Assembly: GCA_027923505.1 (NCBI GenBank)
Contig: BROI01000024.1
Location: 372,001 to 436,000 of the forward strand
Length of the DNA: 64,000 bases
Direction: 5' to 3'
DNA from: Mayamaea pseudoterrestris
Lineage: Eukaryota
Shown: positions 36,696 through 60,197 of the stretch, piece by piece
Position numbering within the stretch: the stretch's first letter is position 1
Layout: each line of letters starts with the position of its first letter
Program-made: the position numbers and the translations under genes
Notes under the pieces: generated by a model
What the model was told of the DNA's origin: nothing
Seen by the model: the letters and a program-made list of their open reading frames with translations, nothing else
Databases searched by the model: none

Positions 36696-37199
36696 ATGAG
36701 CAGTAAGTAATAACAGAATGAATTAGAGACGATTACAGGCTGGGATGATACGCTGAGGGCGTCGCTTTTCGTGGCGCGGATCGGATGTTAATTGTCACGC
36801 TTGCTCATTCCGAATCGTTTCCGTCGCACATTGCTAACTCGCATGTTTCGTCTCGCTTTTACAGCTGTTACCGGAGAATCCGTCGGTATCGATCTCGGAA
36901 CCACGTACTCGTGCGTCGGTGTCTGGCAGAATGATCGCGTCGAAATCATTGCCAATGACCAGGGTAACCGCACCACGCCGTCGTACGTTGCCTTTACCGA
37001 GACGGAGCGTCTCATTGGAGATGCCGCCAAGTCTCAGGCCGCCATGAACTCGAGCAACACTGTCTTTGACGCCAAGCGTTTGATTGGACGCAAGTTTTCT
37101 GACCCTAGTGTCCAGGCGGACATGAAGCACTGGCCGTTCAAGGTTGTTTCGGGTGTTGGTGGTACACCAGTCATTGAAGTCGAATACAAGGGCGAGAAG

Positions 37200-37237
<38 letters not shown>

Positions 37238-38066
37238 TTCCAAGATGAAGGAGATTGCCGAAGCTTACCTGGCTAAGGAAGTCAAGAATGCCGTCATTAC
37301 TGTACCGGCTTACTTCAACGACTCGCAGCGCCAGGCTACCAAGGATGCTGGAGCCATTTCGGGCCTCAATGTTCTTCGTATCATTAACGAGCCGACGGCT
37401 GCTGCCATCGCCTACGGTCTTGACCAGAAGGGAGACGAGAAGAATGTTCTTATTTTCGATCTTGGTGGTGGTACCTTTGATGTTTCACTCTTGACGATTG
37501 AGGAGGGAATTTTCGAGGTCAAGGCGACTGCCGGAGACACGCATTTGGGAGGAGAGGACTTTGACAACCGCATGGTCGACTATTTCCTCCAAGATTTCAA
37601 GCGCCGCAACAAGAAGGACATGTCGGAGAACCAGCGTGCCCTCCGTCGTCTTCGTACCGCCTGTGAGCGCGCCAAGCGCACGCTTTCCTCGTCCACCCAG
37701 GCACACATTGAAATTGACTCGCTTTTTGACGGCGTCGATTACAATGCTACGATCACCCGTGCTCGTTTCGAAGACTTGTGCATGGACTATTTCAAGAAGT
37801 GCATGGAGCCAGTAGAGAAGGTTCTTCGCGACTCGAAGCTTGCCAAGAGCCAGGTTGATGAGGTTGTCCTTGTCGGAGGTTCCACCCGTATCCCCAAGGT
37901 TCAGCAGATGCTTTCCGACTTCTTCAACGGCAAGGAGCCATGCAAGAGCATCAACCCTGATGAGGCTGTCGCTTTTGGTGCCACTGTCCAGGCTGCCATT
38001 CTATCCGGTGCTGACAAGTCTGAGAAGCTTTCGGAACTCTTGTTGCTTGACGTTACTCCCTTGTCG

Positions 38067-38101
<35 letters not shown>

Positions 38102-38150
38102 GCTCATCAAGCGTAACACGACTGTTCCCGCCAAGAAGTCGCAGACCTTT

Positions 38151-38185
<35 letters not shown>

Positions 38186-38438
38186 TCAGGTCTTTGAGGG
38201 TGAACGCTCCATGACCAAGGACAACAACTTGCTCGGAAAGTTCAACCTTGACGGTATTCCACCCATGCCTCGTGGTCAGCCCCAGATTGATGTTACCTTT
38301 GACATTGACGCCAATGGTATCCTTAATGTTTCGGCTGTCGAGAAGTCGACTGGAAAGGAGCAGAAGATTACCATTACCAACGACAAGGGCCGCTTGTCGC
38401 AGGACGAGATTGAGCGCATGGTCGCCGAAGCTGAGCGT

Positions 38439-38470
<32 letters not shown>

Positions 38471-38813
38471 CATTGAAGCCAAGAACGGACTCGAGAACTA
38501 TTGCTACAGTCTCAAGTCGTCGATTAGCAGCGAGGAGGTCCAGGGCAAGATTCCTGCGGATGACAAGGCCAAGCTCGAGGCTGCCATTGAGGACACCATC
38601 AAGTGGGTCGATGGTAATTTGACGGCTGAGAAAGAGGAATTCGAGGAGAAGCAGAAGAGTCTTGAGGCCATTGCCACGCCCATTTTGCAGTCGATGGCTG
38701 GTGGTGCTGGCGGCATGCCGGACATGAGTGGCATGGGTGGCATGCCTGGTGCTGGCGGCGCTCCGCCTGCGGCTGACCCGGCGAGTGGACCAACCATTGA
38801 GGAGATTGATTAA
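36696..38813 (+). CDS. HSP70: Cytosolic HSP70; 7-nt first coding exon 36696-36702, intron 36703-36864
   Basis: [35 protein letters not shown] repeats, C-terminal GPTIEEID. Confidence 0.97.
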
Positions 38814-38956
38814 AAGAATAATAATGCATTCGTACTAATTTTATCAAATTATTGTTATTACTTTCTTTCTTGATGTTAGCAAGTGATATGTAATGTATAA
38901 TCTCGTCTTGTGGAACGAGGATAGTAATAATGATCATCCGGCAAGCCTTGTGCTTG

Positions 38957-39098
38957 ATACACTACACTCTCCCCTGCAGCAGAAAGCAAGCTTGAAAGTC
39001 GTTATTAAGTCTGCTGCCTCGCACTGAATACACTATAATCTCCATTGTAGCAGAAGCAAGCTCAAGAGTCGTTATCAGGTGTGCTGCCTCGCTCATAC
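38957..39098. repeat. Degenerate ~70-bp tandem repeat (two units) downstream of HSP70; second copy at 51453-51594
   Basis: atacacta..ctcc..gcagcagaaagcaagcttgaaagtcgttattaagtctgctgcctcgc vs atacacta..ctcc..gtagcagaagcaagctcaagagtcgttatcaggtgtgctgcctcgc. Confidence 0.75.
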
Positions 39099-39495
39099 TG
39101 CAAGCTAAATCTTAGAAGTGAAATGTCCGATTCCTACAAAAAGCTATATTATGGAGCCGGCGACACTACCATCAAGACTTACCGACCACAAATATATGGG
39201 GTGCTTGTTACTTCCGTTTATTTAGTGCTATCTAGGCCATCAGAGGCCGTCATCCAAAATCAAACTTGGAAAAGCCACTCATGGAGCAATCGATTGTCAG
39301 CTTCCCAGACATGTGTGATATCTGCAGCTGCCGAAAGCGTACATCTCCGCCAAAACCCTTTAACGGCGATTTCGGACAATAGGGTATAATGAAGACTCCG
39401 TAACGCAACATTCCATCGTTAATTCTTGGCCCAAGAATTTTGTTAAGGACAAATCGCGTACAATAACAAGTCTGTCACCAGGGATCCATTACATC

Positions 39496-42400
39496 TCACC
39501 TCCAACTCTCGTCTGTCTTGCTTCCTGATGCGTCTGACAGTTTCGAGTCGGATCGCTCCCGCTGTAAAACATGAATGCTCAGGTCGCTAAACATTGGCGA
39601 AACGTCGTCAACCACCTTAAACAGTCGAGGCAGGTTGATGGGCTTGCTTTCCATGACATCCAGACCCGCATCCTTAAACTTCATCAGTTCGCTTCTTTCA
39701 AAGTCATCGACGTACGTAGCCGTCAACGCGCAGATAGGTTGACGCGCCCCGGGACGCATTTTATCCTCCCACTCTCTCAATTGCTTCGTCGCCTCGAAGC
39801 CATTCATGACCGGCATGTCGATATCCATAAATGCAATATCATAAATAGATTGCTTCAGTTTATCCACGCCCTCGGCACCGTTCGAAGCGGTGTCAACGAA
39901 AAAGTCTGCGTTTTCGAAAGCGCGCTTGACCATTTTTCTCGTAACTCCACTATCATCAATGACTAAAATCTTCCGTTTGAGGCCTGTATGTCTCCAGCCG
40001 TCAAGTCCGCTGTTCATACAGTGATAGCGGAGCTGGCGTAGAATCATTAAGGAAGCTTCAGCGTATTGGGTGAGGATTACTTGGTGTTGCATCGGATCCT
40101 CTTCTTGCTCAATCATATCCATGGCCGTGCCCTTTAACTCTTCTAACTGTTGCTCGAACTGAGGGAACATGGTAATACGCGCTTTTACTTTGTTCTTCCG
40201 CTCCTTTTCCTTGTCCAAATTCGATTCGACGGACTCTCCCTGGCCCAGCTGGTTCGTAGATCGGACCATGCCGCCACCATGATCGCTGTCGTCGTTCGAA
40301 GTAGAGCCCAAACCATGATCCGGTTCAGATTGGGACGATTGCTCCTGTTCATGCCCATCTTCATTTATGTGATCTGTATTATCGACATCTTCAATTATAA
40401 ATTTTGCAGGTGGATCAGCAAGTAGGCCTTGAAAGGACGCCCAAGTGTTCCAGTCGGCGTTCGCCTGTAATTTATCGAGGTCAAGCCCAACGGAGCCCTT
40501 GAGGCTTGGCAGTAGGTTCGGTAGCTCGTCACGAATCTCCCCCGCCACCTCACTATCAAGAGCAGCCAACAAATCTCCGCGAAGCTTCAGATTTATGTAA
40601 CCATCGCTTCCTCGATCACCCTCGCCGCCATCGGGATCATAAAAATACTTCTGGAGCGCAGTCAACTCATCTTCATCGAACGGAATTCTACTCAGCCAGC
40701 CGAGAAGTCGGAAATAGGCATTTTGCGATGGGGAACCATGTATGTCGTTGATCATCGCCACAAAGTCTGGCGTAAGAAACCTTCTATCCTGGCTATTTGC
40801 ACCTAGAGCGGCGGAAAGGTCGAGATCAAAGCCGTCATTCCGAGCGCCCTGGTTTTTCGCAAGTCGGTTGTTTTCCATCCATTGCAGTATCGTTTTCATT
40901 TGTTCGTCCTTTCGAATACGAAAGCATACTTCATTTGGTTCATCTTGAAGCGAGGGGTCAAGTGCACCAATCGCAACCATCGGCGGTCCAGCAGCAAAGC
41001 CACGAACTCGTTTCATTGGAACCCATCTGTTTGAAATTATACCCGTGGCGATATGGCACTGCGCCGCTTGTCCGAGACAGCAATTGTCAAGATCGAGCTC
41101 CTCAAGGCGAGGATGTTGCGCAAGCGTGTAAGCAAGGGCAATCGCGCCAGATATTCGAAGAATGTTGCCGGAAAGACCGAGATAAGTGATCGACTCACAC
41201 CCGATAAGACTCCTCATCAGACTCGTTATTCCACGGCTTCCAATCTGGTTGAAGCTAAGGTTAAGTCGCGAAAGCGCCGTCATACTTTGAAGGGAGGCGG
41301 CGACGAGTTGACATCCTTGGTCACCAATTGCATTCTTATCCAAGGAGAGGCTTCTAAGCTCGTGCTGTAGCAGCTTGTTCATTATTGTTTCAACGCCACC
41401 AGCACCGATTGAATTTGACGAAAGCTTCAAATCCACTAGAGGACTTTTAGTGCGCTTCGAAATAATCTTCGTTAACTGGGTAGTACCATCGTCACCGAGA
41501 TTGTTATTTGACATGTCTAATCGATCGAGAAATTCCATGGGAACGAACTTTTGTCTGCTTTCAAGGAACCGCACCAAGACGCCAGCTCCGCTCGTACCGA
41601 ATTTATTTGAGGATAAGTTAAGCTCCTGAATTTTACTCTTCGGTCCAAGACCGTCAAACAACCGACTGATAGCATCAGCCGTCATCGAACAATTCGCAAG
41701 ATGTAGCACCTTCAGCTCATTCTGGTCTCGCTTGTCTGAAATGCCATTATCACCAGGCTTTTTAATCTTGGTTTTTCGTTTTGACGTCGACAAAAAATCT
41801 TCATCGTCGTCATCATCGTCTGAGGAAGTCTCATCAGAGTCGTATCCAGTCTTTCTTGTAGTTGAATCCCTTGAGCGTTTCCTCCTTTGCTTCCGAACTT
41901 CTTCAGAAGGTGACAAAGATGTACCTAGCTCCGCAGCGGACCGGACAGATACATAGTTGCCTGACAAGATAAGGCCGCGCAAGGGAGGCAAGCCTCGCCG
42001 TTTTCGCTTGGCAAGAGTTCGCGCAAGCGCTAACAATCCCTTCTCCTCAATTTTACAAAAGCTGATGTCCAACGTTTTCAAGCAAGAATGTTCGCTGTGG
42101 ATAATTTCGGATAGCATCTCCATACCAGCGTTACCAATATATGTATACGAGAGATTAATGACAGATATTGGAGGCGGTGCAGATTGTGGTTGGGCCGGAA
42201 TGTTAAATGATGGTCGCCGGTTGGGAGTGAGCTGGCCAGAGCGTCCCGTCGGCGTCGAGTTTGACCCAGGCGGACTCAGACTTTGTCGCTCGCTATCGAG
42301 CAGCAAATGCGCAAACGCGTCCTTCAGACTTATGCCGTTTTGTAAAGTAGCAATCATCAAAGGTGCCACTTTGTCCACAGCGAGTTTACCCGACAGCACA

Positions 42401-43696
42401 AGCGTAATCATTTTTATTTCCTCGGGGTAAAGGCGCGTCAGTCCCATGTCAAGTCGAACACCTTCTCGCACAGACTGTATCATGGACCATGGGTCAAACG
42501 TTTTCTTTTGAGCGCCAGTAACACTTTCCTTCAACGCCTGCTCCATTTGCGACTCAGCCGTGCCACTGCCCCCAAGAGGATTTCCGCCTGACGCAGCGAT
42601 TCGAACCAAATTGATATCTTCTTGACTCATTCCGGAGGCTGACATGGATTCTAGAATCGACTGATACACTGCCAAGTCCTCCATCGATGTCATGCTTTCA
42701 AAATTCGGTGGCGGTGTGGGTTCTTCTTGGACATTCTGCTGTTCGGCTTCATTGGTCGTCGGTTTAGCACCCATCAGAAACGAAGCCTCGACTGCCTGCA
42801 CTAATATAGCAGTTATCCTCGTTATTCGATTTATCCGCCTCGCTAGCTCTTCATCATGCACGTACGACTCCAGTAGTATTATCGCTGGTATTGGTTCGTG
42901 AACGTATTCCACCGCTCTCGACAATAGCCATATCCATTGGCCGCCGAGCTCCGGCACAGTCCGTCGCCGCAAGTAGACTGGGACACCGGATTGACCCTTG
43001 TCCCAAAAATGCGACTTTATAAATAAGAAACCAGGCAAGTCCTGTTCGTCTACATTGTCATACGCCGTAGTCATTAACAACGCTTCCGGAGGAAAGCCAG
43101 TGACAGTTCGTGTCGCCTCAAGAATAGTGCCTAGAAAACGGAGGTAAACGGTCAGAAACGAACAATATACGACAAGCCTAATGTGATTATTGCTTACCAT
43201 TTTGAGCAATTGTCAAGTAGTGCCCCTCGGGAAGCGACGCCAAAGGATTCTCGTTGGAAAAGCTCATCTCGTCAAAGGGTTGTTGGTGTTGGTGTTGAAG
43301 AAATTGCTGGAAATACTCGTGCGGAATTTGTTGCTGCATTCCACCATCTTGATGCATGACTCCATCTGTTGATTGCTGATATATGTTTTGAAACGGAGGC
43401 TGTGCTTGTCGATGGAATGGTGATACGCCACTCTTCTCTTCGGGTTGCGCAATTTGAAAATTAATTTGCCCCTGATGTAGCCCCATCACCTCATGAAGAA
43501 GATGCTGATCACCATTGGAAATTTCACCATTGCTACTCGACTGTTCCAGCTCGTTGATGAATTGCAACTGCTGATCATCCAGCTGCACCTGGTTTTGTTT
43601 TGTATTCGATGACCAGGGGCCCATTGGAATACCCTCGCGCTGAGCAGCTTCCAGCATGGCCGCGCGAGCGGCTTTCTCTGCCGCTTGCATCATCAT
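39496..43696 (-). CDS. Multidomain signalling protein: Gln-rich N-terminus, PAS-like domain, RI-type leucine-rich repeats, C-terminal response-regulator receiver; intron 43197-43131
   Basis: LRRs such as LDRLDMSNNNLGDDG and LSRLNLSFNQIGSRG; receiver KILVIDD...FMDIDMPVMNGFEAT...ALTA...SKP; the spliced region reads GTILEATRTVTGFPPEALL...RRRT...GQWIWL. Confidence 0.88.
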
Positions 43697-44233
43697 TTTC
43701 CGAGACCCTCTCACTCTCTATCAATGTTTTGGAAGATCAAGAAAGTGACCAAAGAATAGATTTAGACTGCGCTCGGATATAAAGGTGCGTTCACCTTGAC
43801 TACACTGCGCGAGTGGATTGCCGTCATCGTTGATCTGCAGCTGTCGCTCACCACGAGGAGTTGGATCCCGTATTTCCGAAAATGACCCGAAAGGTAATCT
43901 GGTGGTCGTAAGAAACCCACTGTGAATGACGCCACAGCGGAACACTGATTTCCCATTGACGTGAACCGACCCGCAGCTCCGTACTTGTGATACGTTGAAT
44001 GGCCTTCTGCAGTTCCAGCGAATTCTGGTCTTCCCAAAGAAATTCGCATTCGAGTCATTTTCGATCTGTATCGATTTAAAAGTACTATTACGTACACTCC
44101 GCTTTACTTGTTTTAATTCGGTGCGACATGTCCACGACGCCGCGCGGCCATCACGACGTTTCGTCCACATTCCACATCTCCATCGATCGTTGATCCTTAC
44201 ATTAGCGACGGAAGTAAACCTTACTCACGAAAA

Positions 44234-44539
44234 ATGACAGAGGAAAACAAGGTATTTGTCAAGCTCGTTTCAGCGGAAGGCCAAGATTTCTTCGTCGACC
44301 AAGAAGTGGCTACCACGGCGTCCAATACGATTCGATGCATGCTGGAAGGCTCGTTTCGCGAAGCGCAAGACAAGGTCATTCGCTTTCCCGACATTTCCAG
44401 CTACGTGCTTGAAAGAGTGATCAAGTACATGCATTACAAGGCTCAATATAGCAATTCAAATTCCCGTCTGCCGCAGTTTGTCATTGAGCCGGAGTGTGCG
44501 CTGGAGCTGCTGATTGCCGCAAAGTATTTGGATTGCTAA
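44234..44539 (+). CDS. ELOC: Elongin C
   Basis: VKLVSAEGQDFFV...SNTIRCMLEGSFREA...FPDISSYVLERVIKYMHYK...ALELLIAAKYLDC. Confidence 0.93.
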   Translation: MTEENKVFVKLVSAEGQDFFVDQEVATTASNTIRCMLEGSFREAQDKVIRFPDISSYVLERVIKYMHYKAQYSNSNSRLPQFVIEPECALELLIAAKYLDC

Positions 44540-44666
44540 GAGTTACGAAGACGAGGAAATTAAGCCGATTATCTGACAACGATATACATTTGTTTTAATA
44601 ACCTTTAACTATAGGCAATTGGCGAACTTTGGTGAATGATGCAACTTGTGACATGTTTCGTAGCAT

Positions 44667-45820
44667 TTACTCGTTGCCTTTACCTTTGCTTTTGCCGGCG
44701 AGATGTAGTCGAACCAGGTCAGCCGCAGAGGCATGATCGGATATTTTATAGTTCTCCAATAGCCATGGAGACTTCATCAGTATGGATGCGGGTATTCGCT
44801 TAGCTATGCACGCGAATTGAGGCGAAAAGGCAGTGAGTGAAGCGAATGAAATAGCATGGCAAATCGTTTCCACTATCCGTAAAACATACCAGGATGTTGC
44901 TGTAAGCAAGCACTTAACATTTCTGCGAGCCCAGACTCTGCATTCGCAGGAATAATTGACTTTGTACTCGTCTCTTCCACAGTGACCAACAACTCCACCA
45001 AGGAACGACAGTCTTCCCATGGCGCTTCCAGAGTCAAGCACTGCACCAAGCAAAGCCCGAAACTCCACAAATCGCTCGACCGACCGTAGGCACGTCCTCG
45101 CAATCGTTCCGGCGCCATGAACTTGCTCGTTCCGAGCAGAGTCGTGTTGAGGCAGGAGGACGAAACATCCGACGCCAGTCCAAAGTCGGCCAGTTTCACA
45201 ACTCCTTTCGACGCATCAAGGAGAATGTTCGCCGGTTTCAAGTCGCGGTGTAAAATCTTGTGCGCATGTAGAGCACTCAAGCCATCCAATGTTTGAAACG
45301 CTACTCCGGCAATCATGTCATGCGGCACACTGCTCGTTCTTCCAGAAATGTAGTCCTCCAACGAACCACCGTCCATGTACTCCACAATCATGGCAACCTG
45401 CTCATGCTGCAGAAAGGCACCATGGAGTTGGATCAACGATGGCGACGTTTGCTGGAGTGACTGCTGCAGAGACACCAAGGCCTTGAGCTCCTTGACCAGC
45501 ATGTCACTGTGACTCGCCATGTCGATCGAAAACGTTTTGACAGCCACAATGACGTCAATGTTCGATGAATCACTCGCAGTTTGCTTCCACGTCGCTCGAT
45601 GCACCTTGGAAAAGGCTCCCTTGCCGAGTAGCTCGTGCAGCTCCACACAGTCGGGCAGTAGCTGGTTTCGCGAAATGGTGGCGCCATCGAAGCGAAGGTA
45701 GTCGGGACCAATGGAGATGTTATTTTGACGAAAGGTTGTCACGAGCTCATCCAGCTCATGGTCGGGTTGTTCAAACAGCTCCGCGTCAAGTGTTAACCGA
45801 GGTCGTTGCTGCTTCTGCAT
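44667..45820 (-). CDS. MAP kinase kinase (STE7/MAP2K-like); intron 44889-44804
   Basis: LGKGAFSKV, VEYMDGGSLED, HRDLKPANILL, DFG, GTSKFMAPERL, SDLWSFGL. Confidence 0.85.
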
Positions 45821-46185
45821 GTTATGCTTGGTTGCTTGTCGTGCTGGCGAATGAGCGAATGAGCGATTTTTGATGCGTGATGAACGATGAGCAAGCAGCT
45901 TCCACGGCGAATGAGCGGAGCACTATTAGCGACTTTTGATAGTTTAATTGTCCCTTAACCAAGCTTTAGTGCAAATTGATCGGGTCGTTTCGTAACCTTG
46001 TGGCATTTGTGGCCGTTTTATCATTGGATGCGGCGGAGAAAGAAGTGATGCAACCCGTTGAGTACCGGTCCGACTCCTCTGCGTGACGCTTTCGCGGAAC
46101 GAACAAAATGGCACTCGACGACCCGCGCTCATAATCACCATGGCCATATCTCGCTCCAACCAAACCTGAATAGCTCTCTGTTATC

Positions 46186-47466
46186 ATGCCGTGGTCCTTG
46201 TTCGCCAAGGATGAAGATGAAAAACCGGACGAAGGAAATGAGAAGCGGTATTTCCAAGACATGCAGGATGCACTCTTGATGCGACGGCCTGCCGCTTCGT
46301 CTTCCACTGATGTACTCGACAAGCAAGAAAAGGCGGTACTGCACAAACTGAATCAAGCAGCAGAATTGAAACGAGTCGGAAAAAGCAAGGAAGCACTAGC
46401 GCTTTATGAGACTGCATTGGACGAAGGTCTACAGCTTTGTCGGCGGCTCGACCATCAAACCAGTTTGAAGAATCGTCTCCGCATCGCCATGACGGACGCG
46501 GAAAACATCAAGGCATCCATCACCAAGCAACCCAAACCAGCAATGAATGGAAAACTATCCGAGCTGCAGCAATCAATCATTGACGACTTTTACGTTGATT
46601 CATCATCGCTGCAGTCAACCTCCTGGAGCGACATTGCCGGCCTCGAAGCAGTCAAACAGTCGCTTCAGGAAAATGTCATACTGCCACTGCTCCGCCCCGA
46701 CCTGTTTCAAATGGGCCTTCGCAAGCCCCAAAATATACTACTGTATGGTCCGCCCGGCACGGGCAAGACCATGCTGGTGCGAGCGTGTGCGCTCGAGTCG
46801 CCATCGTGCCACTTGTTTGTGTGCGCCGCCTCGAGCTTGGTGTCCAAGTGGATGGGCGAGTCGGAAAAGATTGTCAAGTGCCTGTTTGAAACGGCGCGCA
46901 GCATGGAGCCGGCGTCAATATTGTTTATTGATGAATTGGATAGTGTGTTGGGCCGTCGCAAGTCGGAGGAGCATGAAGCGAGTCGGCGGTTAAAGACGGA
47001 GTTTATGGTGCAGTTGGATGGCATCCAGCAAAAGCAACAGCAACAATCGCATGTCATTGTCATTGGGTGTACGAATTGTCCATTTGACGTGGATGAAGCT
47101 GTCATTCGGCGCTTTCCAAAAATGATTTACGTGCCTCTTCCAGACGCCAAGACGAGGCGAGCATTGATCAAGAAACTGCTCGGCAAGGCGGGAAAGCATA
47201 CGTTAACGAAAGCTGACATTGACTGGCTAGTGGAACAAACAAAAGGCTACTCTTGTTCCGATATTACAGCCTTGGCATCGGAAGCATCCTACGGTCCACT
47301 GCGGTCACTGGGAGGTGTTGACGCGATTCGTAAGGTCAAGGCACAGGACATTCGTCCCATTGCAATTGAGGATTTTGAAAGCGCACTGAAGCAATCGACG
47401 AGAAGCGTTTCTAACAAGCTGTTGAAGCAGTATAGTGACTGGAAGCGAGAGCATGCGTCAATGTGA
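46186..47466 (+). CDS. MIT-like domain plus meiotic-clade AAA ATPase (spastin/fidgetin-like)
   Basis: WSDIAGLEAVKQSLQENVILPLLRPDLF, GPPGTGKT, SLVSKWMGESEK, FIDELDS, EHEASRRLKTEF. Confidence 0.88.
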   Translation: MPWSLFAKDEDEKPDEGNEKRYFQDMQDALLMRRPAASSSTDVLDKQEKAVLHKLNQAAELKRVGKSKEALALYETALDEGLQLCRRLDHQTSLKNRLRIAMTDAENIKASITKQPKPAMNGKLSELQQSIIDDFYVDSSSLQSTSWSDIAGLEAVKQSLQENVILPLLRPDLFQMGLRKPQNILLYGPPGTGKTMLVRACALESPSCHLFVCAASSLVSKWMGESEKIVKCLFETARSMEPASILFIDELDSVLGRRKSEEHEASRRLKTEFMVQLDGIQQKQQQQSHVIVIGCTNCPFDVDEAVIRRFPKMIYVPLPDAKTRRALIKKLLGKAGKHTLTKADIDWLVEQTKGYSCSDITALASEASYGPLRSLGGVDAIRKVKAQDIRPIAIEDFESALKQSTRSVSNKLLKQYSDWKREHASM

Positions 47467-47701
47467 TGGTTAAGTGCAAACTGCTATGTAATCAGGTTTT
47501 CGGCTAATCGTACGATGCCAGTCATTCTAAACACTTCCTACCATTTATACCGAATAGATGAAATGCGTTCAAACGATATAAGCTTAGCCAATGCACACAT
47601 AATTTAGCAATTAACTGTAGGTCCAGCGGAAACATAAATTTTACCGCACACACACAACACTTGCACCGACAAACAAACATTCAGTTGCTAATAGCTGCTC
47701 A

Positions 47702-48585
47702 TTAGCAATCTGTGAACCAGCACGACGTCCAGCTCTTTCGCTCCGGTTCCGGAAACAGATTGACGACGGGAGCCGCTGCCGCGCGACCATTGTGACTTCC
47801 GTTTGGTTCGTGCGGCTTATGCTTGTCCGTCTTGCGGCGGCGCTGCGAAGCCGTCACGGCAGGATTCACTCGCGAGTCTTGACTCGACGGAGTGACGCTA
47901 GCTGATGATTGTTGCGGCAGGACGATGGAACCATTTGCGAGAGCCATCTTGAGCGCCTCTGTCACTTTGGAGCCGCTGTGTTGCTGCAGCATGTCGGCAG
48001 CAGCCGATGGATCGGATACGAACTGATATCCCTGGTGTTCTTGTGACAATTTGAGCTGTAGAAAATAGAGAGAAGTGAGAATAAGCAAACAATTGCATCT
48101 GCTGCTTCCAATCAGAGTCACAATGAGCAAATACCCACCTTCAAGTGCATTCCGATGCTGCCCAGCGGAGCAACTCCAGTCGCTAGAAAGTCAGAGTCAT
48201 TTATAACAAGCTTGAAGAAGAGTCGATTCTTTAATTCATTGTCGAGTTTTTTACTTGACTTGGTATGCAATGTCACTGGCTGTATTCGTTCCAAGCTCGA
48301 TCGAACGTCCATGCCAGTTTCCTCGTACAGTTCCCTCGCCGCTGCTGATCTGGCCGCCCACAAGAGTTGCGCGTCACGATCATTCGCAAATTTAACAGCT
48401 GCTTTTATGAATTCTTGCTCGTCCAAATGGCCGCCGGGAGTCTGAAAGTGAGGACCCTTGGAAAGCTTGCGCGTGCAGTGCAGCAGCAGCAAACCGTGCG
48501 TTTCGTGAATGACAAAAATAAAGCCGCGATAGTCCTTGCTCTTGTAATCGACCAAAATATTATTGGTGATATTTGATGGACTCAT
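47702..48585 (-). CDS. Nudix hydrolase; intron 48138-48056
   Basis: PGGHLDEQE...AAARELYEETG, followed by LKLSQEH. Confidence 0.82.
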
Positions 48586-48846
48586 ATTCAAATGAGTGCT
48601 TTGTATTTGGTATGCTTGTTCACAGATTCCGTTGTTCAATTGCCATGGTCGACTTCGAAAGTGAAGAAGAAAGATCGGGGCTGCTTCGCTCAGTCGAATA
48701 TAGCGATGGGGTTAGGCTGTGACGTCATATTGTTCGCCGCAGCGTCCGTTTTTTCCTTTCCTCGACCATGATGATTGATGAACGCAATTACCGCTGCGTT
48801 GCTTTGCTCGAATTCGCGCTTGTAAATTCGTGCAGCAGCTTGAATC

Positions 48847-50022
48847 ATGGCATCCGCGTACCTGCGGTCACTCTTGTCAAGGCCTCTCGCAGTGCCGATG
48901 CTATGGTACGCGTCAATGTCCATTTTCGACAAGCAGCCATCGGCATCAAAATCGGCTCGTTGCGAGGCAGAAGTAAACAAGAATAACAATGCTTCAACGA
49001 AAGAAACCAAGCAGCAGCAGTTGCAAGCGCGACTCATATTCCTTGGAACAGGCTCCAGTACAGGCTGTCCCAGGCCCCTATGTACCATGCTCTTTCGCGG
49101 TGCCAGTCCCAGCCATGACCCCAAAGTGAAGGATTACTTTGACTGCACCGTTTCCAATCTAGCCGTTCCATTTCATGCCAACAACCCGGCAAACAACAAG
49201 AACTACCGCAACAATCCTTCATTGCTACTGCAAACCGAAAATGGCTGTATTACCATCATTGACGTTGGCAAAACCTTTCGGGAAGGCGCGCTGCGCTGGT
49301 TTCCGCGCTACCAGATTGGATCCATTGACTCCATTGTCTTGACGCACGAGCACATGGACGCCGCCGGAGGTTTGGATGACGTGCGGGGATTTCAACAATA
49401 TGCAATAATTAATGACAAAGAGTCGCAACAGCGGCGAACCAAGGTGGTCCCCATGCCGCTGCACCTTTCGCAACATTGCTACAATGACTTGCAGCAGCGG
49501 TTTCCCTGGCTCTTGCCGCAACCAGCGTCAACGATAGATGCTGCTGCTGCTTCTAGCGACGAAAGCAAGCCAGTCGTTCAACGACACGTGGCAACCTTCC
49601 AAGTCGAAACCTTTGAAGCGTTCCAACCATTTTTGACGAATGACGGTCAATTGGAAATAACGCCACTACCCGTCATGCACGGCGAAGACCTAATTTCCTA
49701 CGGCTTTAGCTTCACCATTGGCACGTTGAACGTTGTCTACTTGAGCGACATTTCCCGCATGCTTCCTTCAACCCTCGACTACATTTTAGACAAGCCAACG
49801 GACATTTTGATTGTGGACGCGCTGCACGAGGCGGAGTCCAACGCCGTGCACTACACGCTGCACGAGGCGCTGGCATTGGTTGCAACGATACAGCCAAAGC
49901 AAACGTACTTTGTGGGAATGAGCTGCGATAGCTTTCTGCCGCATGACGACATGAACAAAATGCTTGCTGGAAAATATGGCAACGTTGCGTTTGCGCATGA
50001 TGGCTTGGAAATATTGGCATGA
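48847..50022 (+). CDS. Metallo-beta-lactamase-fold hydrolase (PhnP/YycJ-like eukaryotic subfamily)
   Basis: FLGTGSSTGCP, NKNYRNNPSLL, IDVGKTFRE, LTHEHMDAAGGLDDVR, PVMHG, YLSD, AHDGL. Confidence 0.9.
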   Translation: MASAYLRSLLSRPLAVPMLWYASMSIFDKQPSASKSARCEAEVNKNNNASTKETKQQQLQARLIFLGTGSSTGCPRPLCTMLFRGASPSHDPKVKDYFDCTVSNLAVPFHANNPANNKNYRNNPSLLLQTENGCITIIDVGKTFREGALRWFPRYQIGSIDSIVLTHEHMDAAGGLDDVRGFQQYAIINDKESQQRRTKVVPMPLHLSQHCYNDLQQRFPWLLPQPASTIDAAAASSDESKPVVQRHVATFQVETFEAFQPFLTNDGQLEITPLPVMHGEDLISYGFSFTIGTLNVVYLSDISRMLPSTLDYILDKPTDILIVDALHEAESNAVHYTLHEALALVATIQPKQTYFVGMSCDSFLPHDDMNKMLAGKYGNVAFAHDGLEILA

Positions 50023-50103
50023 CACTAACGATAATAGAGGTTCTACTGTAGATTTAATCTTTGTACATTGTTTAGTAGAAGATCTCTTTTACATTCACCT
50101 CAT

Positions 50104-50910
50104 TCATTGCCGTTGCTTGGAGCGAAACTCGTCAAAATTCTGTTTCGCTCCCGTCTGAAAACTCGTTACGGCAAAGTTCACCACCGCCTGGTTAACAACG
50201 TTGGACGCCGCCCTGATGGTTGGTTCCGGCAGTAGGCGCAGCGGCAGCGGCAAGACTCCCTTGGTTGCAAAGGCAATGGCTCCAAACACTCCCCTGCCGT
50301 TGCTGCTTGGTTTCATTTGACCAAACACTTGAATGGAAACATTGAGCGACGCGGGCGTGACGGTCAACCCCGGCAATCCCAACACTTGCACGTTTGGGTT
50401 GTAGTCGACGCTCTGCAGCGAAAAAATGGGGTCTCCCGTAACGCGGCTCACGAGCGTCTTCATTTCCACGTCCACGGTCGGAGACAGTTGAATCGTGAAA
50501 AACTGCAGCGTCATGACTTGGAGGCGAAAAATGTGGCGGTCAATTTGCGACAAGAGTTTGGGGTCCCAAATGCTGCGCGCCAAGCCGACCGTGTCGTTGA
50601 GCCAGTGGCGAATGGTGTGCCGATCGTCCCGTTCGACGAGTAACGTTTGAAGGTTGGCGGTTGCTCCAAACTCGATGTGACCAGTGGATTTATCGAGCTT
50701 GAAGTATGGTCCTTTGCGACTCAATAACTCGCGGCGGCGGTTTTCCGAAACAGGAGTCTGTCTTTGGGTTGCTTGTAGTTTTGAAAAGGAAAAGCGATGA
50801 TGATTACGTTGTATCGTCGTTTGTCGTTGCAAGTCAAAGGCGCTCGATGCTCCAAGCGTGAATAACACGCCGGCTGCAGCTGCAAGCAGCTTTGGTGCAT
50901 TCATCCTCAT
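50104..50910 (-). CDS. Probably plastid-targeted protein of unknown function (DUF1997-like)
   Basis: Signal peptide plus ASSAF motif; FRLQVMTLQFFTIQLSPTVDV and LPLPLRLLPE segments resemble DUF1997. Confidence 0.65.
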   Translation of the reverse strand: MRMNAPKLLAAAAGVLFTLGASSAFDLQRQTTIQRNHHRFSFSKLQATQRQTPVSENRRRELLSRKGPYFKLDKSTGHIEFGATANLQTLLVERDDRHTIRHWLNDTVGLARSIWDPKLLSQIDRHIFRLQVMTLQFFTIQLSPTVDVEMKTLVSRVTGDPIFSLQSVDYNPNVQVLGLPGLTVTPASLNVSIQVFGQMKPSSNGRGVFGAIAFATKGVLPLPLRLLPEPTIRAASNVVNQAVVNFAVTSFQTGAKQNFDEFRSKQRQ

Positions 50911-51054
50911 TTTGTATCGAGTCTTTCGTGAGCCTTGGCGTTACAGTCTACTTGGAGGATGATGAGAGACGAAGTGCATGGAAAGGGAACAGCAAGGATG
51001 TGATGGTTTGCGGATTGTTCGACGCGAACGAGAGGTGCTGAGTCATGAGAACTA

Positions 51055-51309
51055 GATGACAAGGCCAAGCTCGAGGCTGCCATTGAGGACACCATCAAGT
51101 GGGTCGATGGTAATTTGACGGCTGAGAAAGAGGAATTCGAGGAGAAGCAGAAGAGTCTTGAGGCCATTGCCACGCCCATTTTGCAGTCGATGGCTGGTGG
51201 TGCTGGCGGCATGCCGGACATGAGTGGCATGGGTGGCATGCCTGGTGCTGGCGGCGCTCCGCCTGCGGCTGACCCGGCGAGTGGACCAACCATTGAGGAG
51301 ATTGATTAA
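51055..51309 (+). pseudogene. HSP70: 5'-truncated HSP70 fragment (last 84 codons) created by the duplication junction
   Basis: Matches 38559-38813; no upstream HSP70 exons or promoter. Confidence 0.9.
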
Positions 51310-51991
51310 AAGAATAATAATGCATTCGTACTAATTTTATCAAATTATTGTTATTACTTTCTTTCTTGATGTTAGCAAGTGATATGTAATGTATAATCTC
51401 GTCTTGTGGAACGAGGATAGTAATAATGATCATCCGGCAAGCCTTGTGCTTGATACACTACACTCTCCCCTGCAGCAGAAAGCAAGCTTGAAAGTCGTTA
51501 TTAAGTCTGCTGCCTCGCACTGAATACACTATAATCTCCATTGTAGCAGAAGCAAGCTCAAGAGTCGTTATCAGGTGTGCTGCCTCGCTCATACTGCAAG
51601 CTAAATCTTAGAAGTGAAATGTCCGATTCCTACAAAAAGCTATATTATGGAGCCGGCGACACTACCATCAAGACTTACCGACCACAAATATATGGGGTGC
51701 TTGTTACTTCCGTTTATTTAGTGCTATCTAGGCCATCAGAGGCCGTCATCCAAAATCAAACTTGGAAAAGCCACTCATGGAGCAATCGATTGTCAGCTTC
51801 CCAGACATGTGTGATATCTGCAGCTGCCGAAAGCGTACATCTCCGCCAAAACCCTTTAACGGCGATTTCGGACAATAGGGTATAATGAAGACTCCGTAAC
51901 GCAACATTCCATCGTTAATTCTTGGCCCAAGAATTTTGTTAAGGACAAATCGCGTACAATAACAAGTCTGTCACCAGGGATCCATTACATC

Positions 51992-54900
51992 TCACCTCCA
52001 ACTCTCGTCTGTCTTGCTTCCTGATGCGTCTGACAGTTTCGAGTCGGATCGCTCCCGCTGTAAAACATGAATGCTCAGGTCGCTAAACATTGGCGAAACG
52101 TCGTCAACCACCTTAAACAGTCGAGGCAGGTTGATGGGCTTGCTTTCCATGACATCCAGACCCGCATCCTTAAACTTCATCAGTTCGCTTCTTTCAAAGT
52201 CATCGACGTACGTAGCCGTCAACGCGCAGATAGGTTGACGCGCCCCGGGACGCATTTTATCCTCCCACTCTCTCAATTGCTTCGTCGCCTCGAAGCCATT
52301 CATGACCGGCATGTCGATATCCATAAATGCAATATCATAAATAGATTGCTTCAGTTTATCCACGCCCTCGGCACCGTTCGAAGCGGTGTCAACGAAAAAG
52401 TCTGCGTTTTCGAAAGCGCGCTTGACCATTTTTCTCGTAACTCCACTATCATCAATGACTAAAATCTTCCGTTTGAGGCCTGTATGTCTCCAGCCGTCAA
52501 GTCCGCTGTTCATACAGTGATAGCGGAGCTGGCGTAGAATCATTAAGGAAGCTTCAGCGTATTGGGTGAGGATTACTTGGTGTTGCATCGGATCCTCTTC
52601 TTGCTCAATCATATCCATGGCCGTGCCCTTTAACTCTTCTAACTGTTGCTCGAACTGAGGGAACATGGTAATACGCGCTTTTACTTTGTTCTTCCGCTCC
52701 TTTTCCTTGTCCAAATTCGATTCGACGGACTCTCCCTGGCCCAGCTGGTTCGTAGATCGGACCATGCCGCCACCATGATCGCTGTCGTCGTTCGAAGTAG
52801 AGCCCAAACCATGATCCGGTTCAGATTGGGACGATTGCTCCTGTTCATGCCCATCTTCATTTATGTGATCTGTATTATCGACATCTTCAATTATAAATTT
52901 TGCAGGTGGATCAGCAAGTAGGCCTTGAAAGGACGCCCAAGTGTTCCAGTCGGCGTTCGCCTGTAATTTATCGAGGTCAAGCCCAACGGAGCCCTTGAGG
53001 CTTGGCAGTAGGTTCGGTAGCTCGTCACGAATCTCCCCCGCCACCTCACTATCAAGAGCAGCCAACAAATCTCCGCGAAGCTTCAGATTTATGTAACCAT
53101 CGCTTCCTCGATCACCCTCGCCGCCATCGGGATCATAAAAATACTTCTGGAGCGCAGTCAACTCATCTTCATCGAACGGAATTCTACTCAGCCAGCCGAG
53201 AAGTCGGAAATAGGCATTTTGCGATGGGGAACCATGTATGTCGTTGATCATCGCCACAAAGTCTGGCGTAAGAAACCTTCTATCCTGGCTATTTGCACCT
53301 AGAGCGGCGGAAAGGTCGAGATCAAAGCCGTCATTCCGAGCGCCCTGGTTTTTCGCAAGTCGGTTGTTTTCCATCCATTGCAGTATCGTTTTCATTTGTT
53401 CGTCCTTTCGAATACGAAAGCATACTTCATTTGGTTCATCTTGAAGCGAGGGGTCAAGTGCACCAATCGCAACCATCGGCGGTCCAGCAGCAAAGCCACG
53501 AACTCGTTTCATTGGAACCCATCTGTTTGAAATTATACCCGTGGCGATATGGCACTGCGCCGCTTGTCCGAGACAGCAATTGTCAAGATCGAGCTCCTCA
53601 AGGCGAGGATGTTGCGCAAGCGTGTAAGCAAGGGCAATCGCGCCAGATATTCGAAGAATGTTGCCGGAAAGACCGAGATAAGTGATCGACTCACACCCGA
53701 TAAGACTCCTCATCAGACTCGTTATTCCACGGCTTCCAATCTGGTTGAAGCTAAGGTTAAGTCGCGAAAGCGCCGTCATACTTTGAAGGGAGGCGGCGAC
53801 GAGTTGACATCCTTGGTCACCAATTGCATTCTTATCCAAGGAGAGGCTTCTAAGCTCGTGCTGTAGCAGCTTGTTCATTATTGTTTCAACGCCACCAGCA
53901 CCGATTGAATTTGACGAAAGCTTCAAATCCACTAGAGGACTTTTAGTGCGCTTCGAAATAATCTTCGTTAACTGGGTAGTACCATCGTCACCGAGATTGT
54001 TATTTGACATGTCTAATCGATCGAGAAATTCCATGGGAACGAACTTTTGTCTGCTTTCAAGGAACCGCACCAAGACGCCAGCTCCGCTCGTACCGAATTT
54101 ATTTGAGGATAAGTTAAGCTCCTGAATTTTACTCTTCGGTCCAAGACCGTCAAACAACCGACTGATAGCATCAGCCGTCATCGAACAATTCGCAAGATGT
54201 AGCACCTTCAGCTCATTCTGGTCTCGCTTGTCTGAAATGCCATTATCACCAGGCTTTTTAATCTTGGTTTTTCGTTTTGACGTCGACAAAAAATCTTCAT
54301 CGTCGTCATCATCGTCTGAGGAAGTCTCATCAGAGTCGTATCCAGTCTTTCTTGTAGTTGAATCCCTTGAGCGTTTCCTCCTTTGCTTCCGAACTTCTTC
54401 AGAAGGTGACAAAGATGTACCTAGCTCCGCAGCGGACCGGACAGATACATAGTTGCCTGACAAGATAAGGCCGCGCAAGGGAGGCAAGCCTCGCCGTTTT
54501 CGCTTGGCAAGAGTTCGCGCAAGCGCTAACAATCCCTTCTCCTCAATTTTACAAAAGCTGATGTCCAACGTTTTCAAGCAAGAATGTTCGCTGTGGATAA
54601 TTTCGGATAGCATCTCCATACCAGCGTTACCAATATATGTATACGAGAGATTAATGACAGATATTGGAGGCGGTGCAGATTGTGGTTGGGCCGGAATGTT
54701 AAATGATGGTCGCCGGTTGGGAGTGAGCTGGCCAGAGCGTCCCGTCGGCGTCGAGTTTGACCCAGGCGGACTCAGACTTTGTCGCTCGCTATCGAGCAGC
54801 AAATGCGCAAACGCGTCCTTCAGACTTATGCCGTTTTGTAAAGTAGCAATCATCAAAGGTGCCACTTTGTCCACAGCGAGTTTACCCGACAGCACAAGCG

Positions 54901-56192
54901 TAATCATTTTTATTTCCTCGGGGTAAAGGCGCGTCAGTCCCATGTCAAGTCGAACACCTTCTCGCACAGACTGTATCATGGACCATGGGTCAAACGTTTT
55001 CTTTTGAGCGCCAGTAACACTTTCCTTCAACGCCTGCTCCATTTGCGACTCAGCCGTGCCACTGCCCCCAAGAGGATTTCCGCCTGACGCAGCGATTCGA
55101 ACCAAATTGATATCTTCTTGACTCATTCCGGAGGCTGACATGGATTCTAGAATCGACTGATACACTGCCAAGTCCTCCATCGATGTCATGCTTTCAAAAT
55201 TCGGTGGCGGTGTGGGTTCTTCTTGGACATTCTGCTGTTCGGCTTCATTGGTCGTCGGTTTAGCACCCATCAGAAACGAAGCCTCGACTGCCTGCACTAA
55301 TATAGCAGTTATCCTCGTTATTCGATTTATCCGCCTCGCTAGCTCTTCATCATGCACGTACGACTCCAGTAGTATTATCGCTGGTATTGGTTCGTGAACG
55401 TATTCCACCGCTCTCGACAATAGCCATATCCATTGGCCGCCGAGCTCCGGCACAGTCCGTCGCCGCAAGTAGACTGGGACACCGGATTGACCCTTGTCCC
55501 AAAAATGCGACTTTATAAATAAGAAACCAGGCAAGTCCTGTTCGTCTACATTGTCATACGCCGTAGTCATTAACAACGCTTCCGGAGGAAAGCCAGTGAC
55601 AGTTCGTGTCGCCTCAAGAATAGTGCCTAGAAAACGGAGGTAAACGGTCAGAAACGAACAATATACGACAAGCCTAATGTGATTATTGCTTACCATTTTG
55701 AGCAATTGTCAAGTAGTGCCCCTCGGGAAGCGACGCCAAAGGATTCTCGTTGGAAAAGCTCATCTCGTCAAAGGGTTGTTGGTGTTGGTGTTGAAGAAAT
55801 TGCTGGAAATACTCGTGCGGAATTTGTTGCTGCATTCCACCATCTTGATGCATGACTCCATCTGTTGATTGCTGATATATGTTTTGAAACGGAGGCTGTG
55901 CTTGTCGATGGAATGGTGATACGCCACTCTTCTCTTCGGGTTGCGCAATTTGAAAATTAATTTGCCCCTGATGTAGCCCCATCACCTCATGAAGAAGATG
56001 CTGATCACCATTGGAAATTTCACCATTGCTACTCGACTGTTCCAGCTCGTTGATGAATTGCAACTGCTGATCATCCAGCTGCACCTGGTTTTGTTTTGTA
56101 TTCGATGACCAGGGGCCCATTGGAATACCCTCGCGCTGAGCAGCTTCCAGCATGGCCGCGCGAGCGGCTTTCTCTGCCGCTTGCATCATCAT
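51992..56192 (-). CDS. PAS-LRR-receiver protein, copy 2
   Basis: Same translation as 39496-43696, shifted +12496. Confidence 0.85.
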
Positions 56193-56729
56193 TTTCCGAG
56201 ACCCTCTCACTCTCTATCAATGTTTTGGAAGATCAAGAAAGTGACCAAAGAATAGATTTAGACTGCGCTCGGATATAAAGGTGCGTTCACCTTGACTACA
56301 CTGCGCGAGTGGATTGCCGTCATCGTTGATCTGCAGCTGTCGCTCACCACGAGGAGTTGGATCCCGTATTTCCGAAAATGACCCGAAAGGTAATCTGGTG
56401 GTCGTAAGAAACCCACTGTGAATGACGCCACAGCGGAACACTGATTTCCCATTGACGTGAACCGACCCGCAGCTCCGTACTTGTGATACGTTGAATGGCC
56501 TTCTGCAGTTCCAGCGAATTCTGGTCTTCCCAAAGAAATTCGCATTCGAGTCATTTTCGATCTGTATCGATTTAAAAGTACTATTACGTACACTCCGCTT
56601 TACTTGTTTTAATTCGGTGCGACATGTCCACGACGCCGCGCGGCCATCACGACGTTTCGTCCACATTCCACATCTCCATCGATCGTTGATCCTTACATTA
56701 GCGACGGAAGTAAACCTTACTCACGAAAA

Positions 56730-57035
56730 ATGACAGAGGAAAACAAGGTATTTGTCAAGCTCGTTTCAGCGGAAGGCCAAGATTTCTTCGTCGACCAAGA
56801 AGTGGCTACCACGGCGTCCAATACGATTCGATGCATGCTGGAAGGCTCGTTTCGCGAAGCGCAAGACAAGGTCATTCGCTTTCCCGACATTTCCAGCTAC
56901 GTGCTTGAAAGAGTGATCAAGTACATGCATTACAAGGCTCAATATAGCAATTCAAATTCCCGTCTGCCGCAGTTTGTCATTGAGCCGGAGTGTGCGCTGG
57001 AGCTGCTGATTGCCGCAAAGTATTTGGATTGCTAA
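56730..57035 (+). CDS. ELOC: Elongin C, copy 2
   Basis: Same translation as 44234-44539. Confidence 0.9.
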   Translation: MTEENKVFVKLVSAEGQDFFVDQEVATTASNTIRCMLEGSFREAQDKVIRFPDISSYVLERVIKYMHYKAQYSNSNSRLPQFVIEPECALELLIAAKYLDC

Positions 57036-57162
57036 GAGTTACGAAGACGAGGAAATTAAGCCGATTATCTGACAACGATATACATTTGTTTTAATAACCT
57101 TTAACTATAGGCAATTGGCGAACTTTGGTGAATGATGCAACTTGTGACATGTTTCGTAGCAT

Positions 57163-58316
57163 TTACTCGTTGCCTTTACCTTTGCTTTTGCCGGCGAGAT
57201 GTAGTCGAACCAGGTCAGCCGCAGAGGCATGATCGGATATTTTATAGTTCTCCAATAGCCATGGAGACTTCATCAGTATGGATGCGGGTATTCGCTTAGC
57301 TATGCACGCGAATTGAGGCGAAAAGGCAGTGAGTGAAGCGAATGAAATAGCATGGCAAATCGTTTCCACTATCCGTAAAACATACCAGGATGTTGCTGTA
57401 AGCAAGCACTTAACATTTCTGCGAGCCCAGACTCTGCATTCGCAGGAATAATTGACTTTGTACTCGTCTCTTCCACAGTGACCAACAACTCCACCAAGGA
57501 ACGACAGTCTTCCCATGGCGCTTCCAGAGTCAAGCACTGCACCAAGCAAAGCCCGAAACTCCACAAATCGCTCGACCGACCGTAGGCACGTCCTCGCAAT
57601 CGTTCCGGCGCCATGAACTTGCTCGTTCCGAGCAGAGTCGTGTTGAGGCAGGAGGACGAAACATCCGACGCCAGTCCAAAGTCGGCCAGTTTCACAACTC
57701 CTTTCGACGCATCAAGGAGAATGTTCGCCGGTTTCAAGTCGCGGTGTAAAATCTTGTGCGCATGTAGAGCACTCAAGCCATCCAATGTTTGAAACGCTAC
57801 TCCGGCAATCATGTCATGCGGCACACTGCTCGTTCTTCCAGAAATGTAGTCCTCCAACGAACCACCGTCCATGTACTCCACAATCATGGCAACCTGCTCA
57901 TGCTGCAGAAAGGCACCATGGAGTTGGATCAACGATGGCGACGTTTGCTGGAGTGACTGCTGCAGAGACACCAAGGCCTTGAGCTCCTTGACCAGCATGT
58001 CACTGTGACTCGCCATGTCGATCGAAAACGTTTTGACAGCCACAATGACGTCAATGTTCGATGAATCACTCGCAGTTTGCTTCCACGTCGCTCGATGCAC
58101 CTTGGAAAAGGCTCCCTTGCCGAGTAGCTCGTGCAGCTCCACACAGTCGGGCAGTAGCTGGTTTCGCGAAATGGTGGCGCCATCGAAGCGAAGGTAGTCG
58201 GGACCAATGGAGATGTTATTTTGACGAAAGGTTGTCACGAGCTCATCCAGCTCATGGTCGGGTTGTTCAAACAGCTCCGCGTCAAGTGTTAACCGAGGTC
58301 GTTGCTGCTTCTGCAT
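57163..58316 (-). CDS. MAP2K-like kinase, copy 2
   Basis: Same translation as 44667-45820. Confidence 0.83.
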
Positions 58317-59962: not shown

Positions 59963-60197
59963 TGGTTAAGTGCAAACTGCTATGTAATCAGGTTTTCGGC
60001 TAATCGTACGATGCCAGTCATTCTAAACACTTCCTACCATTTATACCGAATAGATGAAATGCGTTCAAACGATATAAGCTTAGCCAATGCACACATAATT
60101 TAGCAATTAACTGTAGGTCCAGCGGAAACATAAATTTTACCGCACACACACAACACTTGCACCGACAAACAAACATTCAGTTGCTAATAGCTGCTCA

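Follow-up and report, generated by a model that had tools for sequence, protein, structure and literature searches.

The gene at positions 39496 to 43696 on the minus strand of a 64,000-nucleotide stretch of the Mayamaea pseudoterrestris genome (assembly GCA_027923505.1, contig BROI01000024.1, positions 372,001 to 436,000; hereafter the window, in whose numbering all positions are given) encodes a kinase-less response regulator whose body is without precedent and which is restricted to diatoms and Parmales. It is a real, expressed-looking, two-exon nuclear gene whose product is a soluble signaling protein of 1377 amino acids (aa). From the N-terminus, the protein consists of a helix, a PAS domain with an exit helix, about 11 leucine-rich repeats (LRRs) with a charged insert, a middle domain, a helical hairpin, a receiver and an invariant tail. 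We favor, at a probability of roughly 55%, the reading that this protein is an orphan multi-domain terminal response regulator of a diatom His-Asp phosphorelay; for this reading we infer the phosphorylation itself, the source of the phosphate, the direction of the signal and the output. The parts of the gene and its product are as follows.

39496..43696, minus strand: whole gene, two exons, ATG at 43696, stop codon at 39498-39496
43198..43696, minus strand: coding exon 1, residues 1-166 and the first base of Gly167
43131..43197, minus strand: intron, 67 nt, GT..AG, interrupting the PAS domain between its strands A and B
39496..43130, minus strand: coding exon 2, residues 167-1377 and stop codon (39498-39496)
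42862..43225, minus strand: PAS core, residues 158-256, across the intron
42769..42852, minus strand: long helix immediately downstream of the PAS core (EELARRINRITRITAILVQAVEASFLMG), model residues 111-138
42310..42498, minus strand: segment between PAS and LRRs (FDPWSMIQSVREGVRLDMGLTRL...), with invariant P380, R388, G390, L393, D394 and G396
41020..42168, minus strand: ribonuclease-inhibitor-type LRR block, residues 488-870, about 11 repeats counted by eye
41719..41895, minus strand: basic-then-acidic insert, residues 579-637, between LRR 3 and LRR 4 (RKQRRKRSR...DDDDDDED...KRKTKIKK)
40462..41019, minus strand: middle domain particular to this family, residues 871-1056, largely helical, with many invariant positions and no known relative
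40009..40164, minus strand: helical hairpin immediately ahead of the receiver, residues 1156-1207
39610..39969, minus strand: receiver (REC), residues 1221-1340, with DD 1225/1226, phospho-acceptor D1269, T1303 and K1329-P1330
39574..39630, minus strand: near-invariant tail (PRLFKVVDDVSPMFSDLSI) that overlaps REC at its end, P1334 to I1352 invariant in 22/22 orthologs

The receiver is recognized by Pfam Response_reg (PF00072) with an E value of 7e-17 and 62.0 bits against a cut-off of 30.2, over profile positions 1-110 of 111. An earlier, model-made annotation of the window (the original prediction) had described a receiver that keeps all of its catalytic positions, and alignment of orthologs bears this out. 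D1225, D1226, D1269 (in FMDIDMP), T1303, K1329 and P1330, which comprise the five catalytic positions and the cis-Pro position, are invariant in 22/22 orthologs, and the same six positions are invariant in 13/13 sequences including Mediolabrus, Corethron and Triparma. An AlphaFold2 model of the last 543 residues has a mean predicted local distance difference test score (pLDDT) of 58, and within it the receiver forms the strands and helices of a (beta-alpha)5 fold at model residues 386-486 (block pLDDT ~55-83). A VIA-align search, which covered model residues 382-510 only and has no bearing on the middle domain or the hairpin, matched the AtCRE1 receiver 7p8d with Z 12.2 and a root-mean-square deviation (rmsd) of 2.6 over 89 residues at 37% identity. 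A receiver or CheY-like domain is present in all 50 VIA-align entries listed, and the modeled fold also matches GacS D1 and C. thermophilum HK3. Matches by sequence include 8phn (6.4e-15) and 7p8d (1.9e-10).

No kinase parts accompany this receiver. HisKA, HATPase_c and Hpt (PF01627) were absent from 8/8 family proteins at Pfam E<=1 and from a further 20/20 family or near-family proteins at E<=0.01 (0/28 in total); for HisKA and the histidine phosphotransfer domain (HPt) these negatives rest on whole-protein scans, and the hairpin may still be a very distant relative of HPt or of the dimerization and histidine phosphotransfer domain (DHp). The prediction that H-box and HATPase motifs are missing thus holds for all 28 members scanned. 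An alignment of 22 orthologs leaves no unassigned conserved stretch big enough for HATPase_c, and a length-unrestricted profile search returned no longer, fused form of the family, with all family matches at or below 1353 aa. In the 1377-aa protein, Pfam at E<=1 reports LRR_6, Response_reg and nothing else of note; neither NACHT/NB-ARC nor helix-loop-helix (HLH) gave a match at that threshold, and the region ahead of the PAS domain is of low complexity. NCBIfam matches are confined to the receiver. Two family proteins bear kinase names in their source records, P0076 of Seminavis robusta ("Peroxide stress-activated histidine kinase") and P0087 of Nitzschia inconspicua ("PAS/PAC sensor hybrid histidine kinase"), and these names do not fit because Pfam finds no kinase domain in either protein.

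At the other end of the protein, structure prediction confirms PAS identity at the level of fold, and the modeled domain belongs to the PAS-B (PAS_3) group. A profile built from residues 150-300 and ten orthologs matched the PAS-B domains of AhR/spineless (1.2e-3) and CLOCK (1.3e-3) in the PDB, as well as those of BMAL1 and ARNT. The AlphaFold2 model made from the same alignment reached a pLDDT of 90.3 and a predicted template modeling score (pTM) of 0.79, with elements in the order b-b-a-a-b-b-b followed by the long exit helix. Foldseek found 192 PDB chains at E<=0.001 for this model. The best match was ARNT PAS-B (4gs9_B; E 7e-6, probability 1.00, target template modeling (TM) score 0.80, rmsd 2.1, 112 columns), followed by CLOCK, BMAL1, HIF-2alpha, AhR and Aer; among the 43 chains listed, 42 are bHLH-PAS or PER PAS domains and 1 is the Aer PAS domain. 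Seven of eight family members scanned carry PAS_3 at the homologous place, three of the eight reaching the gathering score of 25.6 bits. The PAS-like segment that the original prediction had pieced together across the intron is therefore upheld by model, structural match and orthologs alike. For the Triparma protein, hhalign with the PAS profile gave a probability of 2.6%, which is not significant, and its N-terminus is PAS-like by eye. Inspection of the PAS domain by eye revealed neither a LOV-type Cys motif nor a conserved helix His, and the domain resembles protein-binding PAS-B domains. The exit helix is modeled with block pLDDT 95-97, has invariant R268, R271, Q278 and V280, and is a candidate signaling or dimerization helix.

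The repeats between these two domains are of the ribonuclease-inhibitor type. LRR_6, a family of 28-29-residue repeats, matches the 1377-aa protein at 2.9e-20, and the best PDB match of the LRRs is ribonuclease inhibitor (4.4e-19, aligned over residues 470-688 of P0001), with further matches to the LRRs of NLR proteins, RanGAP and LRRC34. These matches and the count by eye agree with the roughly ten ribonuclease-inhibitor/NLR-type repeats predicted earlier. Judging from its sequence, the segment that precedes the block is possibly an additional N-terminal LRR or a cap. The charged insert ranges from 31 to 76 aa across 22 orthologs, with the basic cluster present in 13/22 and the acidic cluster in 14/22. 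Because of its composition and variable length, the insert is probably a disordered loop. It had been described as acidic and, in its basic part, as resembling a nuclear-localization signal; the insert itself is present, but the localization reading is weak, and a nuclear-localization role is not a conserved feature because the basic cluster is absent in 9/22 orthologs.

Three other assignments were considered and rejected. The invariant motif NCCLGQAAQCH is not taken as a zinc or metal site, since its Cys positions fit the ribonuclease-inhibitor-type repeat consensus, and the motif presumably forms the last LRR. An EF-hand at DRGSDGYINLKL was discarded on account of non-canonical loop positions and the lack of a Pfam EF-hand match at E<=1. 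PF27087 is LRR_TMOD-LMOD, just another LRR family, and does not correspond to the middle domain.

The middle domain is specific to this family. Its profile had only two matches in the PDB (E 0.077 and 1.1), which were taken as chance. A search of 1.84 billion representative proteins with the same profile yielded no more than 49 matches, and E<=1e-30 was reached by 20. Fourteen matches scoring at least 50 bits were scanned, and 13 are LRR_6 proteins of the same family; 11 of the 14 carry LRR_6 together with Response_reg, and four of these 11 also carry PAS_3 (E<=0.01). P0135 and P0141 match with LRRs and without a receiver (P0135 also has PAS_3), and they look like truncated family members, while P0157 is an LRR-only protein. 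Six weaker matches that were scanned comprise five LRR-only proteins, matched in the last repeat only, and one unrelated PPC-domain protein. In the ESM Atlas, the middle domain retrieved only LRR clusters at <=0.87, which serve as leads only.

The hairpin before the receiver is modeled as two helices, at model residues 322-341 and 345-373 (block pLDDT 77-95). It is conserved as far as Triparma and has no invariant His. Complex prediction with two copies of hairpin plus receiver returned a score of 0.02. The C-terminal tail reads PRLFKVVDDVSDMFSDL in Triparma, nearly unchanged. Four features do not figure in the original prediction, namely the middle domain, the hairpin, this tail with its invariance, and an identical duplicate of the gene, described below.

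The gene model was derived from two overlapping minus-strand open reading frames (ORFs). The larger, 39496-43212, is unbroken for 1238 codons and covers PAS through receiver, and the upstream one, 43187-43717, ends in ...EGHYLTIAQNGKQ. As read from the sequence, the intron begins with GT at 43197-43196 and ends with AG at 43132-43131, and excision of its 67 nt creates AAT G/GC ACT (...YLTIAQN-G-TILEATR...) with the frame kept. The spliced product of 166 + 1 (the split Gly) + 1210 = 1377 aa is identical (100%, same 1377-aa length) to P0003, deposited as "hypothetical protein MPSEU_000965300" of Mayamaea pseudoterrestris. The intron at 43197-43131 lies where it had been predicted. The start codon at 43696 is the earliest ATG within its ORF. 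In exon 1 lie the N-terminal helix MMMQAAEKAARAAMLEAAQR, which is conserved, a low-complexity region rich in Gln and the strand that opens the PAS domain (GHYLTIAQN); the N-terminus MMxAAQxAAEAA is common to full-length orthologs.

Comparison with orthologs and public sequencing runs is in line with this model. Alignment slices of the PAS region show the junction to be colinear in 20 of 22 full-length orthologs, transcript-derived ones among them. The other two, P0037 and P0043, have additional residues exactly at the junction, which look like introns retained in their gene models. Many ORF-called orthologs begin at G-TILEAT, as would fit a conserved intron position. A second set of metagenome-derived ortholog ORFs begins slightly later, just ahead of YDAVYEDDLPG, which suggests that part of the family may have its intron elsewhere inside the PAS domain.

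Two of four public runs have contigs in which just two letters separate 43125 from 43195, so that 67 nt are missing on balance; we interpret this as the predicted junction, carried by a variant that differs by two synonymous changes. An unjoined contig is found in a third run. A check of the splice against RNA-seq data had been proposed with the original prediction. The joined form was found, but with the kind of run not on record for any of the four it is consistent with splicing and does not constitute proof. Over window positions 39300-43900, the four runs yield contigs of two kinds, >=99% and 95-99% identical to the window, with many transitions, as would fit a second haplotype or a closely related variant of the gene. 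In one run, a contig has 73 other letters in place of the intron region, a divergent intron.

More than 120 orthologs with 50-83% identity and the same domain order were found in pennate diatoms. The holders are Fistulifera, Seminavis, Nitzschia, Cylindrotheca, Amphora, Epithemia and Grammatophora along with many metagenome contigs, and complete transcript-derived orthologs (MMETSP records) are present. Centric diatoms with the gene include Mediolabrus, Skeletonema, Thalassiosira, Cyclotella (C. cryptica among them) and Corethron. In the Parmales, the sister group of diatoms, it occurs in Triparma strigata, T. verrucosa and T. laevis (994 aa). Phaeodactylum tricornutum and Thalassiosira pseudonana are not among the named ortholog matches, which is no evidence that the gene is absent there. 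Outside diatoms and Parmales, the middle-domain profile search returned only weak LRR-only matches, and profile and ESM Atlas searches did not find the combination of PAS, ribonuclease-inhibitor-like LRRs, new domain and receiver beyond this lineage.

No paper on a PAS-LRR-receiver architecture was found in the full-text literature; subscription journals lay outside that search, and an older description is possible. The prediction that the architecture is undescribed is sustained to that extent: the kinase-less PAS-LRR-receiver protein is real, strongly conserved and without a paper in the searchable literature. The locus tag MPSEU_000965300 is not listed in two supplements of the Mayamaea genome paper (PMC9724779), and the available portions of PMC12558739, PMC4558063 and PMC6944256 contain nothing on diatom response regulators. 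Fistulifera solaris is reported to have 34 histidine kinases, including phytochrome-, CHASE- and ethylene-receptor-like ones, and the eukaryotic scheme is given as hybrid histidine kinase (HHK) to Hpt to response regulator (RR) (PMC6324907); the available text of that paper treats diatom kinases only, and "LRR" and "leucine-rich" occur in it 0 times. A 2026 review states that "nothing is known" on signaling downstream of diatom phytochrome (PMC13150293).

The gene lies within a tandem duplication of 12,456 bp, in which 38559-51014 and 51055-63510 are 100% identical at an offset of 12,496. The duplication begins inside the 3' end of an Hsp70 coding sequence and contains the PAS-LRR-receiver gene, a Skp1-like ORF, a kinase ORF and three more ORFs. 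Contigs from the public runs differ from the window at many positions, so two perfectly identical copies suggest that the duplication is very recent, that gene conversion has occurred or that the assembly is at fault. The second copy and the neighboring genes are listed below.

51992..56192, minus strand: second gene copy, 100% identical, within the 12,456-bp duplication
36792-38813, plus strand: Hsp70 (PF00012, 9.9e-264)
44117-44539, plus strand: Skp1/elongin-C-like POZ protein (PF03931, 1.1e-10)
44873-45922, minus strand: Ser/Thr protein kinase (PF00069, 1.2e-49)

The Hsp70, Skp1-like and kinase neighbors have no evident link to the PAS-LRR-receiver gene. No two-component gene was identified among ORFs of at least 220 aa, with domain scans confined to these three neighbors. 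A very long ORF of 1967 codons is present at window positions 7397-13300 on the plus strand.

If the protein is a terminal response regulator, D1269 would be phosphorylated, the most likely donor being an HPt protein supplied by the diatom hybrid histidine kinases. Phosphorylation of D1269 would then alter how the hairpin and receiver end packs on the scaffold of LRRs and middle domain, and the changed packing would change the set of partner proteins held there. The PAS domain with its exit helix could act as a second control, through ligand binding or PAS-PAS pairing. The original prediction is confirmed as an observation and partly supported as an interpretation; its ligand or redox input, its protein-interaction output and its phytochrome partner are conjectural. 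Several observations weigh against this reading. Pfam does not match a PAS domain in the 1377-aa protein even at E<=1. Outside the receiver, the 543-residue model is confident only for the hairpin and for a helical segment (model residues 40-100); the remaining middle domain is modeled without confidence, and contact between receiver and scaffold is thus a guess. By both sequence and fold, the receiver is nearest to hybrid-kinase receivers (AtCRE1, C. thermophilum HK3, SLN1 and GacS D1), and hybrid-kinase receivers are often relay intermediates and not allosteric switches. The residue three before K1329 (K-3), which we take to be the position of the CheY aromatic switch residue, is Met, with Phe in Triparma.

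The last two of these points would also suit the main rival reading, a hybrid-kinase remnant without its kinase core, in which the receiver, instead of switching an output, serves as a relay intermediate or a sink for phosphate, in competition with other receivers for phosphorylated HPt, and PAS and LRRs only localize the protein. Its nearest receivers belong to hybrid kinases, the position of the two-helix hairpin is approximately that of a DHp hairpin preceding the receiver in a hybrid kinase, K-3 is not aromatic in diatoms, and non-allosteric intermediate receivers are described in PMC9981736. On the other hand, no His is invariant in the hairpin (P0136 has Gln in place of H1203), HisKA is not detected at E<=1, and scaffold, middle domain and tail are conserved like the receiver, a pattern that fits a working output better than anchoring. 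We regard a remnant of this kind as unlikely. Signal flow might instead be reversed, with the LRR solenoid sensing a protein or small ligand, and PAS and receiver forming the regulatory or output side. Ribonuclease-inhibitor/NLR-type LRRs are ligand-recognition surfaces, and the repeats here are of that type. However, neither NACHT/NB-ARC nor any other effector domain is present, the LRR positions are strongly conserved across diatoms, unlike fast-evolving recognition LRRs, and receivers whose active site is intact normally serve as inputs, which together make a sensing solenoid quite improbable.

A pseudo-receiver that is never phosphorylated would leave the protein a constitutive scaffold. 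Nothing specific speaks for this beyond the frequency of pseudo-receivers, described as common in PMC12632262, whereas the catalytic residues are all invariant from Mayamaea to Triparma and pseudo-receivers typically lack some of them; we hold the idea to be very improbable. That the annotation fuses two adjacent genes is scarcely credible. The gene does lie within a duplicated stretch, where an assembly problem is possible, but one unbroken ORF of 1238 codons runs from PAS to receiver, and the more than 120 orthologs with the same domain order include complete transcript-derived proteins.

Diatoms are rich in hybrid histidine kinases, and the PAS-LRR-receiver protein is a concrete, testable candidate for what these kinases signal to. 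This candidacy rests on four points: the receiver is intact, no kinase is present, the family extends from radial centrics to raphid pennates and Parmales, and receiver and tail are nearly unchanged across that range. A bolder possibility, which we put forward only tentatively, is that the family is the main, lineage-defining phosphorelay output of diatoms and Parmales, with PAS-B and receiver jointly gating an LRR scaffold that carries a new effector-binding domain. Such a dual-input hub would take a small ligand or a pairing at PAS-B, for example with a diatom bHLH-PAS clock factor, and at the receiver it would take phosphate from hybrid kinases of the phytochrome, CHASE or ethylene type. 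If true, this would fill the empty "downstream" box of diatom two-component and phytochrome signaling.

Receivers of eukaryotic hybrid kinases, namely Arabidopsis CRE1/AHK4 and AHK5, Chaetomium thermophilum HK3 and yeast SLN1 R1, are the best matches of the diatom receiver and share its DD-D-T-K site. They follow HisKA and HATPase_c in the same chain, whereas the diatom protein has no kinase core. In the fungal non-DNA-binding regulators Ssk1 and Rim15 (PAS, kinase, receiver), a C-terminal receiver controls a non-transcriptional output. Rim15 likewise joins PAS and receiver in one eukaryotic protein. The diatom protein differs from both in having no Ser/Thr kinase or Ssk1-type region and a body composed of an LRR solenoid and a novel domain, and its only sequence relation to them that was found lies in the receiver. 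Bacterial and archaeal PAS-receiver regulators also combine PAS and receiver without a kinase, and they are the nearest non-diatom ESM Atlas clusters at 0.77-0.80, scores below the level of kinship that serve as leads only. Those proteins are ~250-430 aa long and have neither LRRs nor the middle domain.

The PAS domain is closest, by fold and profile, to the PAS-B domains of animal bHLH-PAS factors (ARNT, CLOCK, BMAL1, HIF-2alpha and AhR). Animal PAS-B domains act through PAS-PAS pairing and, in AhR and HIF-2alpha, also through binding of small ligands. In contrast to those factors, the diatom protein has no bHLH and a single PAS domain, with 15-23% identity and another protein context. Its LRRs share the subtype (LRR_6, LRR_TMOD-LMOD) of ribonuclease inhibitor, NLR and RanGAP proteins; in place of a NACHT or RanGAP context, the diatom solenoid is flanked by a PAS domain on one side and a receiver on the other.

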